Assembly: GCA_964457585.1 (NCBI GenBank)
Contig: CAYWFU010000004.1
Coordinates: 13,927 to 77,926, forward strand
DNA length: 64,000 bases
Direction: 5' to 3'
DNA from: an uncultured bacterium
GTDB taxonomy: Bacteria > JACRDZ01
Positions within the stretch are counted from its first letter, which is position 1; each line of letters opens with the position of its first letter. Positions 20,784 to 27,758 of the stretch are shown here, piece by piece. The position numbers and the translations under genes are program-made. The notes beneath the pieces were generated by a model. The model made no database searches. It saw only the letters and a program-made list of their open reading frames with translations, and was not told where the DNA came from.

Positions 20784-22313
20784 TCACTCCTTAGATTTAC
20801 TTTTAATATTTTCCAGTTTGTTTAAAGCATTAATATAAGCTTTCGCACTAGCAACTATTATATCAGTATCAATTCCTCTGCCCAGAACTGTATTATTATT
20901 TTCTTCAAGTTCAACCGAAACATCACCCTGAGCGTCGGTCCCGCCTGTTATAGCTTTGACAATATAAGTCTGCAATTTGCTTTTTGTTTTAGTGATTTTT
21001 GAAATTGCATTATAAACTGCATCAACAGGCCCATCGCCGGTATTTTCAAAAGAAATAACTTTATCTTCGATATTAAGTGAGACTTTGGCTTTAGGTTTTT
21101 CGGTTGTGCCGCAGCATACTTCAAGCGAAACTAATTTATATTTTTCAAGAACAGTTTTTACTCCTTCAATTTCGCTTATTATCCCTAATAAATCTTCATC
21201 ATATATTTCCTTTTTTTTGTCAGCAAGTTTTTTGAAATTTTTAAAAAATTTTTCAAGTTCATCATCTTTTAATTCATATCCAAGTTCGCTTAATCTTGAT
21301 TTTAAAGCATGACGGCCTGAATGTTTCCCAAGAATAAGACGATTGCGGTCAAGCCCGATAGTTTCAGCGCTCATAATTTCATATGTTGAACGTTCTTTAA
21401 GAATTCCATCCTGATGAATTCCAGCTTCATGAGCAAATGCATTTGAACCAATAATAGCTTTATTCGGCTGGACCAAAATACCGGTCAGGTTGCTGACCAA
21501 TCTGCTTGTACGGTATATTTCATCCAGTTTTATTCCTGTTTCAAGTCCGAAGAAATTTTTTCTGGTTTCCAGGATCATTACGATTTCTTCCAATGAAGCA
21601 TTGCCAGCGCGTTCTCCCAATCCATTTATAGTACATTCAACCTGTCTGGCGCCGTTTTTTATTGCCGCAATTGAATTAGCAACAGCAAGTCCAAGGTCAT
21701 TATGACAATGGACACTTAGAATAGTTTTTTCAATTTCCGGAACATTTTTTTTAATATTATGTATTATCTCACCAAACTCTTCAGGAGTAATATAACCAAC
21801 TGTATCAGGAATATTTATGGTAGTGGCTCCGGCTTTAATTGCCGCTTTGATTACTTCATGAAGAAAAACAGGATCACTGCGTCCGGCGTCTTCTGCTGAA
21901 AATTCCACATCATCAACATATTTTTTTGCATATGCAACAGCTTCTTTTGCTGTTTTAATCACTTCGTCTTTCGACATTTTCAGCTTATATTTAAGATGAA
22001 TATCGCTGGTGGCAATAAAAGTATGTATTCTTGGTCTATCTGCTTCACGAAGAGCTTCCCCCGCATTATCTATATCTATTTGTGTTGTTCGGGCAAGCCC
22101 GCATATTATAGGACCTTTTATTTCTTTTGCAATTAATTTAACTGCTTCAAAATCACCAGGTGAAGCAATTGGAAATCCGGCTTCTATAATATCTACTTTT
22201 AGTTTTGTCAGCTGACGTGCAATTTTTAATTTTTCATCTATGTTTAAACTTGCACCGGGAGACTGTTCTCCATCTCTCAAAGTAGTATCAAAAAAAATCA
22301 CTTTATCATTCAT
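20784..22313 (-). CDS. leuA: 2-isopropylmalate synthase (LeuA/CimA family).
   Basis: [31 protein letters not shown]-terminal LeuA dimerisation region. 509 aa. Confidence 0.85.
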
Positions 22314-22397
22314 AAGTATACTCCAATTTAATTTTAAGAAAAAAAATCCCGAAACCGGACAATGCCAGTAACGGGATTAAATTTGTCCATTTCATTA
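22314..22397 (-). promoter_or_regulatory. Putative leu leader/attenuator: a 29-codon Leu-rich leader ORF overlapping an intrinsic terminator immediately upstream of leuA.
   Basis: On the minus strand: ATG AAA TGG ACA AAT TTA ATC CCG TTA CTG GCA TTG ... ([29 protein letters not shown]). The stem aatcccg...cgggatt (22345-22378) is followed by a T-run. The leader stop TGA overlaps the leuA ATG (ATGAATGA). Confidence 0.45.
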
Positions 22398-22499
22398 TTT
22401 TAACAAAAAAAAGTTCAAAATCAAGAAAAATAATTGTAAATAGTCTTTATATATTTTTTTATTGTCTTATAATAATGTTTTATATATAATAAATTCATT

Positions 22500-22718
22500 A
22501 TGAAAAAATATATTGATGAAACAGAAGAATGGTTGAAAATGACTCCTGTACAAAGATTAAAAGAGTCAGGTAATTTATGGAAATTATATTTATCTCTAGG
22601 AGGCAGTCTTGACGCAGAACCCGATACTCAAAGTCCTTTTTACTTTTCAGAAATTTGGGATAAAAAGTCTTTTAATAGGCGGACAAGCATGCATCATTTA
22701 CGGTGCCGCAGAATTTAG
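22500..22718 (+). CDS. Small hypothetical ORF (72 aa) overlapping the start of the following gene; possibly its partner.
   Basis: ATG start. Overlaps the TTG-initiated downstream gene by 110 nt in another frame. Confidence 0.3.
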   Translation: MKKYIDETEEWLKMTPVQRLKESGNLWKLYLSLGGSLDAEPDTQSPFYFSEIWDKKSFNRRTSMHHLRCRRI

Positions 22719-23364
22719 TAAAGATTCTGATTTTATTATTTTTTGTGATTATGAAAATCTTACTAAATTAAAAAAAGCATTAAAATTCCTTAATGCAAAA
22801 AATATTTATGTGCCTTTACTAAAAAAAGAATTTCTTGAAAAAGGACACGCTTGCCATTTTAGATGTCATGATAAATCCGTAGAAAATTTAAGAATAGATA
22901 TTTTCTCAAAATTAAGAGGTTGCGATGATTTCAAAATATTATGGGAGAGAAAGTTTACAGTAGAATTTTCCAAAAACAAAAAAATAGAAGTTATAGGATT
23001 GGAAGATTTAATTAAAAGCAAAAAAACACAAAGAGATAAAGATTGGTTAATGATAAATCGTTTAATAGAAAACGATATGATATTAACTTTAACTCCTTCT
23101 AAAAATAAAATTAAATGGTGGCTTTATGAATGTCGTAATCAAAACAAATTAATTGAATTAACTAACAAAAATAAAAATTTGGCTAAAAAATGTGCAAAAA
23201 AGAGACCCCTTCTAAAAGTGGCATTGCAGGGAAATATTTTAAAATTAGAAAAATTACTTCATAAGGAAGAAATGGTAGAAAGAGAAGAAGATAAAAAATA
23301 TTGGAGTCCTTTAATAAAAGAACTTGAAATACTTAGACATAAATCTTCTCAAACAAAAACTTAA
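22609..23364 (+). CDS. Nucleotidyltransferase-fold protein (AbiEii/DUF1814-like, tentative).
   Basis: TTG start at 22609, preceded by AGGAGG at 22599-22604. GIKSLLIGGQACIIYGAAEFSKDSDFIIF fits the hG[GS]...[DE]h[DE]h polymerase-beta-type NTase motif and resembles AbiEii motif I. Confidence 0.4.
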   Translation: MTQNPILKVLFTFQKFGIKSLLIGGQACIIYGAAEFSKDSDFIIFCDYENLTKLKKALKFLNAKNIYVPLLKKEFLEKGHACHFRCHDKSVENLRIDIFSKLRGCDDFKILWERKFTVEFSKNKKIEVIGLEDLIKSKKTQRDKDWLMINRLIENDMILTLTPSKNKIKWWLYECRNQNKLIELTNKNKNLAKKCAKKRPLLKVALQGNILKLEKLLHKEEMVEREEDKKYWSPLIKELEILRHKSSQTKT

Positions 23365-23647
23365 AGAATTCCATAGTAAGTCAAAGCATAATTCTGCTCT
23401 TATTATCTATATGGGCCATGGTACAAATAATGGAAAACTAATGTTTAACGATTGCTCATTTGGAGAGAATGAGTTAAATGAGCTTAAAAAAAATGGAATA
23501 GATACATCTATACTTTCAGGCATGTTTATCTTTGCCTGTTTTGGTTCTATTTTTGCAAAAAACCTTGGATGTTCATGGATATCCTTTGATAAAGAAGTGC
23601 TAAGTGAAGCACCAAAAGCATATATGCATCGTCTTATACAATTTTAA
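23324..23647 (+). CDS. Hypothetical 107-aa ORF overlapping the 3' end of the NTase gene.
   Basis: ORF only. It overlaps the previous gene by 41 nt in another frame. It could be a frameshifted C-terminal extension. Confidence 0.25.
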   Translation: MKYLDINLLKQKLKEFHSKSKHNSALIIYMGHGTNNGKLMFNDCSFGENELNELKKNGIDTSILSGMFIFACFGSIFAKNLGCSWISFDKEVLSEAPKAYMHRLIQF

Positions 23648-23687
23648 ACTTTATAAATTTTATTTATTTTGACAAACTTTATAAAGT

Positions 23688-24311
23688 TTGATAATATATC
23701 AAACAAGTGGAAAATATATGACTATTCAAGAAAAACTGCAAATTATTCAAAAAATAACCGGATTGACTCAGACTAGATTGGCTGAAAAGTTCGGTGTGTC
23801 TTTCGTTGCTTTCAACAATTGGTGGACTGGTAAATCTTCACCACGGCCGAAAATGCTCTCAGCTATTGACGAGTTATTTTTGGAAGTAACCGGGCAAAAG
23901 ATTATTCCCGTTGAACTCTTGACTGCCAAAAAGCAGATATTGGTCAAAAAATCCAGAGATCATAAAAATGTTATTGCCGAAATATTAAATAGTCCGGATA
24001 TTTGCGACACATTTCTGCTTAAACTTACTTATAACAGCAATCGCATTGAAGGCAGTACTTTGACTGAGCCGGATACCTATTCAAACCTTAATGCTTCAAC
24101 AGGATTTAAATTTGAAGCTTGTCGTGCCGGCCAAATTCCAAAACCCATTCCAATTCCAATGGAAAATGTAGTAGCAAGAATGATAGAAAAGGATGAAATT
24201 GATGTTGGCCAATCAGCAAGACTTGCCAATAACATTGAAATTCCAACGCCCATAAAAATTCCGGATATTCCACCAAGAGAGGTCATAACAATTGATTCAA
24301 TAAGAAATTGA
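23688..24311 (+). pseudogene. Truncated HTH-Fic family gene: XRE-type HTH plus the N-terminal Fic motif only; the Fic core is missing.
   Basis: HTH (TQTRLAEKFGVSFVAFNNWWTGKSSPRPKMLSAIDELF). Fic N-terminal signature [16 protein letters not shown]. No HPFx[DE]GNGR core. The 3' part of the ORF (24077-24311) is antisense to the macB gene end, so the gene is cut off. Confidence 0.5.
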
Positions 24312-26050
24312 ATCATTATATCTTTTTTTCTGGCTCCAATAGCTTTACGAAGTCCGATTTCTTTAGTTCTTTCGGTCACAGAAACAAGCATTATATTCAT
24401 GATTCCAATTCCACCTACTAAGAGAGAAATAGTAGCTATTGAACCTAAAAGCCATGCAAGAGTTTTTGTAGTGCTTGACATTGCTTCTTGTATGTCTGCC
24501 ATATTTCGTATTGAAAATGAATTCTCATCTTTTTTACTTAAGTGATGTCTATAAGTAATTACTTTTTTAATGTCTTTTTGCGCTTCTTCCATTTGTTGAA
24601 TTTCGCTTACTTCAACATCAATTGAATCAAGAAATTCTTTTCCAAACACTCTATACATTGCAGTTGTATATGGGATAACGATAACATCATCATTATCCCT
24701 CCAGCCTGTTGCTCCTTTTTCAGGTAGAATTCCAATAATTCTAAAATTCATACTATTTATTTTTATGATTGCTTCAAGGGGATTTTCACCTTCATCAAAA
24801 AGTTGATTTATAACAGTTTTTCCAATTACTGCAACTTTTTCTCTTCCGATTAATTCTCCTTTTGTAAAAAAACGTCCTTTTGCAGGAACAGCCGCGCGGA
24901 TGTCAGGATAGTTTTCAGCAACTCCCTGTACTCTGGTGTTCCAATTTTTATTTTCATAAACAACTTGTCCTCTGCCATTTGCATTAGGTCCAACTCTTTT
25001 TATAATAGGTATTTTGGCTAAAGCATCTGCATCCTGTATAGTTAAACGTGTTACAGAACCGGCTTCTAGAGAAACCCCATGCATTTGTGTTGATCCAGGC
25101 ATTACTATTAAAAGGTTAGATCCCAGAGCAGATAAACTTTTAGCTATATTTTCTTTTGCTCCTTGACCAAGAGCGAGCATTGCAATAACAGCGGCAACCC
25201 CAATGAAAATTCCTAACATTGAAAGCAGAGAACGCATTTTATGCGAAAAAATTGAATCCATTGCCTGACGCAGATGATCAGAAAATTCAGCCTTACCCAT
25301 TGGACTGGCAGGTTCATAATTTTCTCCCTGTTCATTGGGCTTGCAATCTAATATTTTTTTTGACGAAACAGTAGGAATTTTTGTCTGATCAGAAATAATT
25401 TTTCCATCGCGCATCTTGATAATCCTTTTAGCGTGTTTAGCAACATCTTCTTCATGCGTAATCATAACAATAGTTTTACCTTCTTTGTTAAGATTCTCCA
25501 GAATTTTCATTATTTCATCCTGACTTTTTGTATCAAGATTACCTGTTGGTTCGTCAGCAAATATTACAAGCGGATCATTAACCAGTGCGCGAGCAATTGA
25601 AACTCTCTGCTGTTGTCCGCCTGATAATTCATTAGTATAATTTGTTTTTTTGTCTCTTAAACCAACTGCTTCTAATTTTCTTTCCGCTTTTTCAAATAAA
25701 TGCTTACGGCCGCCATATATTAAAGGAAGCTTAACATTATCGACTGTTGTTAATTTTGGAAGTAAATGAAATTGTTGAAAAACGAAACCTATGGACTGAT
25801 TTCGTAGAACTGCTAAATCATCTTCGCTGAATTTAGAAGTATCTTTACCGTTAAAAAAATATTCTCCTTCATCAGGTCTGTCTAAAAAACCTAATAAATG
25901 AAGCATGGTTGATTTTCCTGAACCGGAAGGTCCCATAATGGCAACAAATTCACCTTCATCAATTTTTAAATCAACTCCGCAAAGAGCCTTAAATTCAACT
26001 TTGCCTGTTCTATAAGTTTTTGCTAAATTTTTTATTTCTATTACTGTCAT
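24077..26050 (-). CDS. macB: MacB-type ABC transporter (fused ATPase-permease).
   Basis: MTVIEIKNL start at 26050; the ORF-track start at 26143 is an upstream extension antisense to the Gly-rich tail of the MFP gene. [24 protein letters not shown], then a periplasmic domain and FtsX-type TM helices. Confidence 0.85.
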
Positions 26051-26069
26051 TTTTTTCCCTGAAATAATA

Positions 26070-27758
26070 TTATCTTCTACCACCACCGCCACCACTACTA
26101 CTACTGCCAAATAAGCCCATTGGTCTAGGAGTGTTTTTATCATCTTTTTTAGGTAATGTTTTATTGATTACCTCACCTTCATTTATTCCCGAAATTACTT
26201 CAGTGTACTCATAATTATTGACTCCTGTTGTAATTTCACGAGGTAATTGTTTTCCATTTTCCATAACAAACACTAATTTGTTTTTACCTTTTTCTTTAAT
26301 TGCATCATTTGGAATAAATAAAACATTTTTTCGTTCCTCTGAAATTATATCCAAAGATGCATTCATTCCCGGTCTTAGAATTGAACGAGGATTTTCAATC
26401 TCAATTGTAACTTCAAAGGTTGTAACATTTGATACCACTGCTCCTTGTGGAGCTATTAAAAGAACCTTCCCTTTAAAATTTTCTTTTGGAAATGCATCAA
26501 CAACAATTTTTACCCTTTGATTTAAAAGTACTTTACCTATATCAGTTTCATCTACATTTGCTTTAACATAAACTCTTGTTAAATCAGCCATTGTAAGAAG
26601 TGTTGTCCCGCCGTTTACTGATGATATTCCGGATGATATTATATTTCCTTCTTGAACAAGTTTTTGAAGAATTGTTCCAGTGATAGGTGCTGTAACCAAT
26701 GTATCTTTATTTCTATCATTTGCTTCTTTTAAAGCTGATTTAGTACGTACAACTTCTGCTTCATTTGAATCCAAATCTTTTTTCTTTATTTCAATTTGAG
26801 ATTTATTGGATATAGCTAAACTTAGCGAGTTTTCTGCGTTTTTAACACTTGATTTTGCAACTTCTAAATCATTTTCTCTGATTATTTCATCTTTTAACTT
26901 TTGATTTGCGGCTTCAAGCGCATATTCCGCCTGTTTTACTTCAAGCTCAGCTAATTGAATATCTTCTTTTGTAGCCGAGTTTTTAACTATTTCTAAATTC
27001 TGTACAGCAGATTCATTTTGAGCTTTTGCATCCTCAAATTTTGCTTTAGCATTATCTAAATTTTCTTTTGAAACATAACCTTGTTCACCGAGTTTATTCA
27101 ATCTTTCATATTGTTTTTGCATTAGTTCTAAATTTGATTTAGATTGATTTAAAGTTGCTTCAGCCCTTTTTATTTCTTCCGGACGAGAACCTATTTTTAA
27201 TTTATTTAATTTTAGTTTAGCAATATTCAAATTGTTTTTTGCATTTTCAATATCTCTTAAATTTGTTGTTTTTTCGTTTTCAATTTTACTTTGCAATGTT
27301 TCCAGTTCTTTTTTTGCAGTTGCCAATGCTTCTTGTTTCAGAGCAATCTCTGTCTCGTTTTGTTTTGTTTGTAATTCAATATTTATTTTTGCTTGTTCTA
27401 ATTTTGCTCTGGCAGATCTTAAATATGCTTCAGCCTGATCTACGTTAGGTTGTGTATAAGTTTTTTCAACTTCAGCAATAAGTTGTCCGTCTTTTAAGAA
27501 ATCGCCTTTTTCAACCGGCATTTTAAGAATTTTGCCGCTTGCAGTTGATTTAACTTCTACAATTTCCCATGGCTCAATTGTTCCCGTAACATTAACAGAA
27601 ACAACAATATTTCCTCTTTTCACCGTAAAATAATTTTCTTCAATCGAACCTTTAGTTTTATCTTTCAATAAAAGATTACTTGCTAAAAATAAAGCAGCAA
27701 GCAAAGATAACAAAATAATTATAAATTTTTTAGATTTAAAATTCATCACCAATTGCAT
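26070..27758 (-). CDS. macA: Membrane fusion protein (MacA/HlyD family periplasmic adaptor) with a long coiled coil.
   Basis: Signal/TM. Long heptad-rich coiled coil (AKLEQAKINIELQTKQNETEIALKQEALATAKKELETLQ...). Beta-barrel/lipoyl-like segments. Gly/Ser-rich C-terminal tail. Confidence 0.8.
   Translation of the reverse strand: MQLVMNFKSKKFIIILLSLLAALFLASNLLLKDKTKGSIEENYFTVKRGNIVVSVNVTGTIEPWEIVEVKSTASGKILKMPVEKGDFLKDGQLIAEVEKTYTQPNVDQAEAYLRSARAKLEQAKINIELQTKQNETEIALKQEALATAKKELETLQSKIENEKTTNLRDIENAKNNLNIAKLKLNKLKIGSRPEEIKRAEATLNQSKSNLELMQKQYERLNKLGEQGYVSKENLDNAKAKFEDAKAQNESAVQNLEIVKNSATKEDIQLAELEVKQAEYALEAANQKLKDEIIRENDLEVAKSSVKNAENSLSLAISNKSQIEIKKKDLDSNEAEVVRTKSALKEANDRNKDTLVTAPITGTILQKLVQEGNIISSGISSVNGGTTLLTMADLTRVYVKANVDETDIGKVLLNQRVKIVVDAFPKENFKGKVLLIAPQGAVVSNVTTFEVTIEIENPRSILRPGMNASLDIISEERKNVLFIPNDAIKEKGKNKLVFVMENGKQLPREITTGVNNYEYTEVISGINEGEVINKTLPKKDDKNTPRPMGLFGSSSSGGGGGRR

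Follow-up and report, generated by a model that had tools for sequence, protein, structure and literature searches.

The 64-kb stretch of bacterial DNA analysed here (part of contig CAYWFU010000004.1, referred to as the window) carries a patch with four open reading frames, ORF1 to ORF4, flanked on one side by leuA, which is transcribed divergently, and on the other by the macB 3' end. At its left, ORF1 and ORF2 together form an intact cassette (22497-23346) that has spread horizontally, and the conservation pattern at the junction of the two genes indicates that some 30-38 nt are read in two frames, both under purifying selection. ORF2 is a predicted nucleotidyltransferase (NTase) and ORF1 a putative antitoxin or regulator. 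We put the chance at a little over one half (roughly 0.55) that the cassette is a toxin-antitoxin (TA) pair similar to MenAT1, with ORF2 as a growth-arresting RNA 3'-end NTase, ORF1 as its neutraliser and the output of ORF2 kept below that of ORF1.

An earlier note on this DNA had taken the whole patch for the decayed remains of an abortive-infection or TA island. What it had read directly from the letters is all present, namely the four ORFs, the TTG at 22609, the AGGAGG 5 nt upstream of it and the N-terminal motifs of ORF2 (LLIGGQACIIYGAAEFSKDSDFIIF) and ORF4. The patch also has the foreign look ascribed to it (GC content 24-30%, versus 33-38% in the flanks), and ORF3 and ORF4 are indeed remnants, but ORF2 is full length and the idea of decay does not extend to the cassette. 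Three acquired pieces with no relation to one another make up the region: the ORF1-ORF2 cassette, an ORF3 fragment and an ORF4 fragment. The patch is not to be dismissed as debris, the remnants being ORF3 and ORF4 only.

The features of the cassette are as follows.

22462-22490, plus strand: promoter-like site TTGTCT-17 nt-TATAAT, a consensus match only, ending 9 nt before the ORF1 ATG
22500-22718, plus strand: ORF1, starting with ATG, 72 aa
22530-22646, plus strand: conserved core of ORF1, W11-F49, W..(L/M)(T/S)P..R..E..KLW..Y..LGGSLD.EPD(P/T)QSPFYF, from alignments and entropies
22598-22603, plus strand: Shine-Dalgarno (SD) sequence AGGAGG of ORF2, with a 5-nt spacer to the TTG, lying in the Gly-Gly codons of ORF1
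22609-23364, plus strand: ORF2, starting with TTG, 251 aa, in the +1 frame relative to ORF1
22609-22646, plus strand: predicted dual-coding stretch, in which ORF2 codons 1-13 (MTQNPILKVLFTF) are ORF1 codons 37-49 (LDAEPDTQSPFYF) in the other frame
22647-22715, plus strand: unconstrained tail of ORF1, its last 23 residues, from alignments and entropies
22678-22731, plus strand: NTase motif I of ORF2, G24-G25...S37-K38-D39-S40-D41, invariant or near-invariant alignment columns
22897-22899, plus strand: D97 of ORF2, likely the third carboxylate, an invariant or near-invariant column
23020-23043, plus strand: K138-K139-T-Q-R-D-K-D145 of ORF2, invariant or near-invariant columns

Conservation of the pair and of its junction

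We assessed the pairing in two sets of loci, 80 from genomes, retrieved with ORF2 and with neighbours found by tblastn, and 80 from metagenomes, retrieved with ORF1. An ORF1 homologue lies directly upstream of ORF2 in 79 of the 80 genome loci, the exception being a contig that begins inside ORF2, and ORF2 follows ORF1 in 78 of the 80 metagenome loci, the exceptions being one contig end and one orphan ORF1. Arrangement and relative frame are the same in ~156 loci from more than 15 phyla with GC contents of 26-71%. The orphan (L126:1465-1644) is an intact 59-aa ORF1 homologue with no ORF2 within 1.5 kb downstream, the latter gene having been deleted, and an ORF2 without ORF1 was found in none of ~158 loci, as would be expected if toxins can be lost but their antitoxins cannot.

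The cassette travels without companions. Clustering of all flanking ORFs in the 80 genome loci revealed no other conserved neighbours, and the intact four-gene block that had been envisaged in relatives was not seen, homologues of ORF3 or ORF4 lying beside the cassette in 0 of these 80 loci. Nucleotide homology to the relatives is confined to 22489/22497-23346 and begins right at the ORF1 ATG. Since it ends at the cassette edges, the mobile unit is just ORF1 and ORF2.

The geometry of the overlap, which spans 110 nt in the window, is conserved as well. ORF2 lies in the +1 frame of ORF1 in 78 of 78 genome loci, where it starts with TTG (64 loci), ATG (12) or GTG (2); a further 74 loci from metagenomes use TTG. 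GGAGG precedes the start with an exact 5-nt spacer in 61 of the 78 loci, and GGNGG does so in 15 more. Direct scanning of the reading frames placed the ORF1 stop codon 50-191 nt inside ORF2 in the 78 genome loci (median 56 nt) and 44-290 nt inside it in the metagenome loci. Overlapping frames and a TTG start had been offered as signs of decay in ORF1 and ORF2, a view contradicted by the conservation of overlap, frame, SD spacing and TTG usage across phyla. Nor are ORF1, ORF2 and ORF3 a single gene disrupted by frameshifts, as the arrangement of the first two is kept in ~156 loci and a second assembly, described below, is identical.

Per-site entropies over 77 loci reveal how the two frames share the junction. 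Upstream of ORF2, and for three codons beyond the TTG, the periodicity is that of the ORF1 frame: outside the overlap the three codon positions of ORF1 have entropies of 1.09, 0.73 and 1.59 bits, and its W, P, R, L, W and GG are invariant with saturated third positions. From +11 to +37 of ORF2 all three codon positions are nearly frozen, and from +38 the periodicity flips into the ORF2 frame. The third position of the first Gly codon of ORF1 has an entropy of 0.95, compared with ~1.9 elsewhere, and in the ORF2 start triplet the second and third bases are invariant while the first is T, A or G only. Furthermore, ORF2 codons 4-10 show a near-single synonymous choice over the whole GC range of 26-71% (AAC 45/47, CCG 73/76, CTC 49/51, AAA 62/65, GTC 65/66, CTT 76/76). 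From codon 11 synonymous codons vary freely, and the equally conserved residues L21, L22, G25, A27, A33, R38 and L58 use all codons.

The simplest reading of this pattern is that the same nucleotides are selected both for the ORF1 motif and for the SD, the start codon and the MT.NPILKVL helix of ORF2, and we regard the overlap as true dual coding of two predicted genes and not as frameshift decay. RNA structure was considered as a cause of the frozen sites and rejected on an RNAalifold energy of -0.54 kcal/mol and no covariation; the only helix proposed consists of 5 invariant pairs (GGAGG with CCUUU). Selection on a long ORF1 tail was also rejected, given the free synonymous use in ORF2 from codon 11 and the fact that about half of the loci stop ORF1 at the first available site. 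The 23-residue tail in the window would then be a by-product.

Conserved same-strand overprinted gene pairs are well documented in viruses and rare in bacteria. The cassette is like them in that both frames are open and under selection and synonymous variation is suppressed exactly in the shared stretch. It differs in that only ~30-38 nt are constrained in both frames, the rest being a free-running ORF1 tail, and in that the shared stretch also holds the SD and start codon of the downstream gene. With a periodicity switch and frozen sites that hold at 26-71% GC, it ranks among the cleaner bacterial cases of true dual coding. Literature searches turned up neither this family nor any natural TA-type pair, antitoxin/NTase pairs included, with such an overlap, only a "partial overlap" for JHP932-JHP933 of Helicobacter pylori (PDB 4OK0), a TA-like pair in which the upstream gene partly overlaps the NTase gene (PMC7450476). 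The likeness to that pair is one of gene overlap, by description, and no sequence similarity to it was detected.

The two proteins and their closest counterparts

ORF2 belongs to a large family of full-length proteins of ~250 aa, 1,656 of which were recovered by database search. The top 120 homologues are 246-271 aa long, cover 97-100% of the query at 54-75% identity and contain no Pfam domain (0 of 120), and every named one is called "hypothetical". Their hosts include Desantisbacteria, Elusimicrobiota, Omnitrophota, WOR-3, Margulisiibacteriota, groups of the candidate phyla radiation (CPR), Planctomycetota, Latescibacterota, Acidobacteriota and others, and the family alignment has a mean column identity of 66%. 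Because the relatives share the start position (MT.NPILKVL...), TTG 22609 is the start of the family, and by these comparisons ORF2 of the window is full length and intact. In one relative (L063:3473-4600) the 245 matching residues of ORF2 are spread over 1,128 nt, which suggests an insertion of ~390 nt or a disruption inside the gene.

The earlier assignment of ORF2 to the NTase fold holds solely at the level of predicted fold and motifs; profile searches for AbiEii/DUF1814, NTase_sub_bind and MNT went against it. The predicted model has a polymerase-beta nucleotidyltransferase fold with a helical C-terminal lobe, and G24, G25, S37, D39 and D41 are invariant across the alignment, forming an [S/T]-x-D-x-D metal-binding motif with a Ser two residues before the first Asp. 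K138, K139, R142 and D145 are invariant too, with a spacing like that of DUF1814 motifs III/IV when compared by position alone. Among solved structures, Foldseek ranks the tRNA-modifying toxin MenT1, as present in the MenAT1 complex, first for the model (E 5e-3, probability 1.0), with ANT(2'')-Ia entries close behind. PF08843 (DUF1814/AbiEii) gave 0 matches at E<=1 among ORF2 and 31 homologues, and the sole NTase-type Pfam match was to DUF2204, in 1 of these 32 family members (E 0.004).

MenA1-MenT1 (Rv0078B-Rv0078A; PDB 8AN4/8AN5) is a TA system of Mycobacterium tuberculosis in which MenA1, a helical, partly disordered antitoxin of 68 aa encoded directly upstream of MenT1, blocks the MenT1 active site and induces auto-phosphorylation of T39 (PMC10435456, PMC11375011). 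In MenT1 the phosphoacceptor T39 is accompanied by D41xD43 and K137 (PMC11375011); the MenT3 counterparts are S78 and K189, and DUF1814 proteins have a unique Asp downstream of the conserved Lys. As MenT1 does, the ORF2 model has an NTase core and, C-terminal to it, a helical part, and its S37-x-D39-x-D41 and K138/K139 mirror T39-R40-D41-x-D43 and K137 of MenT1, with the Lys ~100 residues downstream, in what is a motif comparison and not a superposition. In contrast, the two proteins share 11-14% identity, ORF2 is ~55 aa longer, and similarity to MenT1 or DUF1814 could not be detected with hidden Markov models. An out-of-frame dual-coding overlap of 44-290 nt and a conserved TTG are not among the features reported for MenAT1 (PMC10435456, PMC11375011).

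Two other NTase systems invite comparison. AbiEi/AbiEii modules (type IV TA, DUF1814, PF08843; including MenAT3 and MenAT4) likewise consist of two genes with the NTase second, but ORF2 has no PF08843 match, and in place of a COG5340/AbiEi winged-helix protein its partner is a peptide of 59-90 aa. As for MNT-HEPN pairs, in which a HEPN protein with an Rx4-6H motif is the partner, the only conserved neighbour, ORF1, matches no HEPN profile, and the 80 loci contain no other conserved neighbour that could take this role. The ORF1-ORF2 system resembles an NTase toxin with a short upstream antitoxin and adds a conserved dual-coding junction, whereas membership of DUF1814, or of the MenA1 family by sequence, fails.

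ORF1 has left few traces in databases: 12 matches among 5.8 billion proteins, as against more than 1,600 for ORF2, because gene callers refuse long overlaps. A protein identical to ORF1 is on record at NCBI under "Candidatus Firestonebacteria bacterium". This amounts to an annotation blind spot, in which a gene evidently under purifying selection beside more than 1,600 database proteins from Omnitrophota, Elusimicrobiota, Planctomycetota, CPR and other groups has been recorded 12 times.

The homologues of ORF1 are 59-90 aa long and share the acidic, proline-rich motif LDPEPDPQSPF. An AlphaFold2 model contains helices at residues 7-13 and 16-32 with a predicted local distance difference test score (pLDDT) of ~90, followed at 33-49 by the conserved motif, which has no regular structure (pLDDT 70-79), and by a tail that is disordered or of low confidence. 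Like MenA1, ORF1 is short (72 versus 68 aa), predicted to be helical and partly disordered, encoded directly upstream of the NTase and devoid of a DNA-binding domain; Pfam, NCBIfam and PADLOC gave no match to a helix-turn-helix (HTH), HEPN or other domain.

On the expression of ORF1, we note that a -10 box similar to that of the promoter-like site lies 6-9 nt before the ORF1 ATG in several relatives (L011, L012, L035), and that promoter consensus matches are not enriched in the AT-rich region around ORF1. As the window and many relatives have no SD for ORF1, its mRNA may be leaderless; an SD is present in other relatives (L002, L013, L016).

Proposed function and alternative explanations

In the proposed mechanism ORF2 would arrest growth by adding nucleotides to the 3' end of RNA, probably tRNA, and ORF1 would neutralise it. 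Ribosomes translating ORF1 would run over the ORF2 initiation site, and in combination with the strong SD and the weak TTG this would keep ORF2 synthesis low relative to that of ORF1. A further effect of the overlap would be that neither gene can be separated genetically from the other. The analysis shows intactness, family size, obligate pairing, dual coding, the start-codon and SD signature, the fold of the model and the motif. The case for the gene architecture is strong and that for function indirect, with toxicity, substrate, neutralisation by ORF1 and translational occlusion as inferences. These MenT1-like NTases form a new family that occurs mainly in uncultivated lineages and has a small, unrelated partner; confirmed toxicity would make it an extension of the MenAT/AbiE paradigm. 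The combination of a weak TTG, a fixed SD spacing and an upstream ORF running through the start site offers a testable model for the translational control of a toxin.

Several observations weigh against this interpretation. Searches of ORF1-3 against Pfam, NCBIfam and PADLOC assigned no family, and AbiEii/DUF1814, NTase_sub_bind and MNT were not found among the hits; against PDB chain sequences, the ORF2 profile gave chance matches only and the ORF1 profile nothing significant (best E 0.95). Foldseek with the ORF1 model returned no match at E<=10, and ORF1 is unrelated to MenA1 in sequence and fold. An unconstrained tail after the ORF1 motif would be odd for a folded trans-acting protein. Moreover, the neighbours of the cassette in the sampled loci are unrelated, mostly housekeeping genes and not defence islands, and relatives of ORF2 are lacking among the viral contigs of IMG/VR and the plasmids of PLSDB, where TA modules are usually common.

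A tentative extension, against which we put the odds at about three to one, would make the overlap a functional device and not mere packing, in that the motif controlling the NTase is overprinted on the ribosome-binding site, TTG and first helix of the NTase gene. If so, ORF1 translation would physically gate ORF2 initiation, via ribosome occlusion or a nascent-peptide pause on the motif, and any mutation, loss or transfer of one gene would involve the other as well. It would also mean that a regulator family whose partner genes number more than 1,600 in the database is invisible to gene callers, and that synthetic "entangled" toxin genes have a natural counterpart with a new way to set the toxin-to-antitoxin ratio.

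The alternative that survives best, although we consider it unlikely, is that ORF2 is a non-toxic small-molecule or housekeeping NTase (ANT/Lnu/TM1012-like, for example a resistance or modification enzyme), with ORF1 as an accessory subunit or regulator. The ANT(2'')-Ia entries near MenT1 in Foldseek, the housekeeping chromosomal neighbours and the absence from plasmids and phages would all agree with such a role. However, MenT1 is the top Foldseek match, the S-x-D-x-D motif with a Ser at the phosphoacceptor position matches MenT toxins, and an additional helical domain stands at the C-terminus of ORF2, as it does in proteins of the MenT/AbiEii type. An obligate small upstream ORF, a weak TTG and a patchy spread at 55-75% identity over unrelated phyla are, in addition, typical TA traits.

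We find it less plausible still, and distinctly improbable, that ORF1 is a cis-acting leader or arrest peptide, with a ribosome slowed on W11...DPEPDPQSPF sitting at or near the SD-TTG of ORF2 and gating its initiation. The conserved span W11-F49, of ~37-39 residues, is roughly as long as the ribosomal exit tunnel. Such a peptide would also account for the lack of constraint past the motif, with the ORF1 stop falling anywhere from 44 to 290 nt into ORF2, for a Pro/Asp-rich motif encoded exactly over the ORF2 initiation region and for the failure of ORF1 to match a known protein. On the other hand, the motif has no consecutive prolines and is no known arrest motif, the mRNA lacks a conserved hairpin that a paused ribosome could remodel, the N-terminal helices are predicted at pLDDT ~90 as in a folded domain, and the orphan ORF1 has stayed intact without ORF2.

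A programmed +1 frameshift at GGAGG-N4-CUU-G, similar to that of prfB, could in principle yield a fusion of ORF1(1-37) with ORF2, as the SD-like GGAGG stands at a fixed distance before CUU and the +1 frame from there corresponds to ORF2 from codon 2 onward. This is very improbable: CTG never occurs at the junction, where TTG, ATG and GTG are the only triplets, a pattern typical of start codons, and ATG and GTG are not slippery. No stop or rare codon follows the site to stimulate a shift, and the ORF1 residues past it (EPDPQSPF), needless for a fusion, are under purifying selection. Finally, that ORF1-ORF3 are frameshifted debris of a decaying Abi/TA island, as the fragmentary ORF3 and ORF4, the low GC and three reading frames within 1.2 kb might suggest, is barely credible, and for ORF1 and ORF2 refuted, in view of a full-length ORF2, an identical ORF1/ORF2 arrangement in ~156 loci, purifying selection on both frames and the identical second assembly (possibly from the same reads).

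Remnants and surroundings of the cassette

The remaining features of the patch are as follows.

23324-23647, plus strand: ORF3, an open frame starting with TTG, 107 aa; the part with remnant homology is 23333-23647
23647-23697, plus strand: strong promoter-like site of the Fic remnant, TTGACA-17 nt-TAATAT (with TG), together with two copies of an operator-like palindrome, AACTTTATAAA(T/G)TTT, as sequence matches
23688-24311, plus strand: open frame of ORF4, running antisense into macB
23718-24077, plus strand: truncated HTH-Fic gene within ORF4, starting with ATG, the first 120 of ~310 codons, with an XRE HTH and N-terminal Fic helices including SNRIEG
24077-24079, minus strand: stop codon of macB, coinciding with the breakpoint of the Fic truncation

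A second assembly (Logan SRR12113406, L001) is 100% identical to the window over 21047-23694 (2,648 nt); it possibly derives from the same reads, and within that limit there is no sign of assembly frameshifts at the locus.

ORF3 overlaps the 3' end of ORF2 by 41 nt, and an independent gene call gives it an alternative start (ATG 23412, 78 aa). Residues 249-351 of P0254, a protein of 398 aa, match it with 49% identity, and the 248 N-terminal residues missing from its parent gene are nowhere in the 64-kb window. The same type of domain, with a GHG...AC(F/Y)G signature, is found at about residues 270-350 of NACHT/AAA+TPR STAND proteins. On this homology, ORF3 is a dead internal fragment of a gene of ~400 codons with a STAND-associated domain, a domain that also stands N-terminal to NACHT/AAA+TPR modules and may be an uncharacterised effector domain. 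The context of a full-length relative (L083) has nothing in common with the locus. Residues 1-120 of P0254 ("ELDIVGFT...GDGYY") look like a class III nucleotide cyclase, with no Pfam or PADLOC match.

ORF4 had been described as a truncated HTH-Fic gene without the catalytic core that runs antisense into macB, and homology bears this out. Counted from ATG 23718, its first 120 residues share 90% identity with the corresponding stretch (1-120) of P0133 (307 aa) and of 307-310-aa PF01381 + PF02661 proteins; the homology stops at residue 120, nt 24077, with a one-base overlap with the macB stop codon, and the frame from there to 24311 is meaningless antisense of macB. HTH_3 scored E 2.8e-4, short of the Pfam cut-off, and PF02661 gave no match, the Fic core HxFx(D/E)GNGRxxR (residues ~120-300) being deleted. 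Relative to SoFic/PDC-S04 proteins, both of which an intact ORF4 relative matches in PADLOC, the N-terminal 120 residues, promoter and operators have been kept and the Fic core is gone. ORF4 is thus a dead remnant of a defence-type gene of the HTH-Fic kind, in which the deletion reaches exactly to the stop codon of macB.

The Fic inhibitory helix has the motif [S/T]xxxE[G/N], and we take SNRIEG (24030-24047) to fit this consensus; the remnant would therefore keep the HTH and the inhibitory helix without the catalytic core. Both operator-like sites are also kept in an intact HTH-Fic locus (L082), and what is left of the HTH protein might still be produced and control its own expression. The context of that intact gene has nothing in common with the locus, and the rest of the Fic gene is absent from the 64-kb window. 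An insertion splitting the Fic or the ORF3 gene was considered and rejected, the missing halves being nowhere in the window.

Two observations concern the flanks. A cassette copy in Omnitrophota (L008:3248-3733) adjoins an Aconitase_C (LeuD-type) gene, compared with the leu operon beside the copy in the window; the shared leu-type neighbours are probably a coincidence. The longest macB ORF (24077..26143) begins 74 nt inside macA and starts with an odd hydrophobic stretch (26050-26143), and the true macB start is probably an internal ATG giving MTVIEIKNL...

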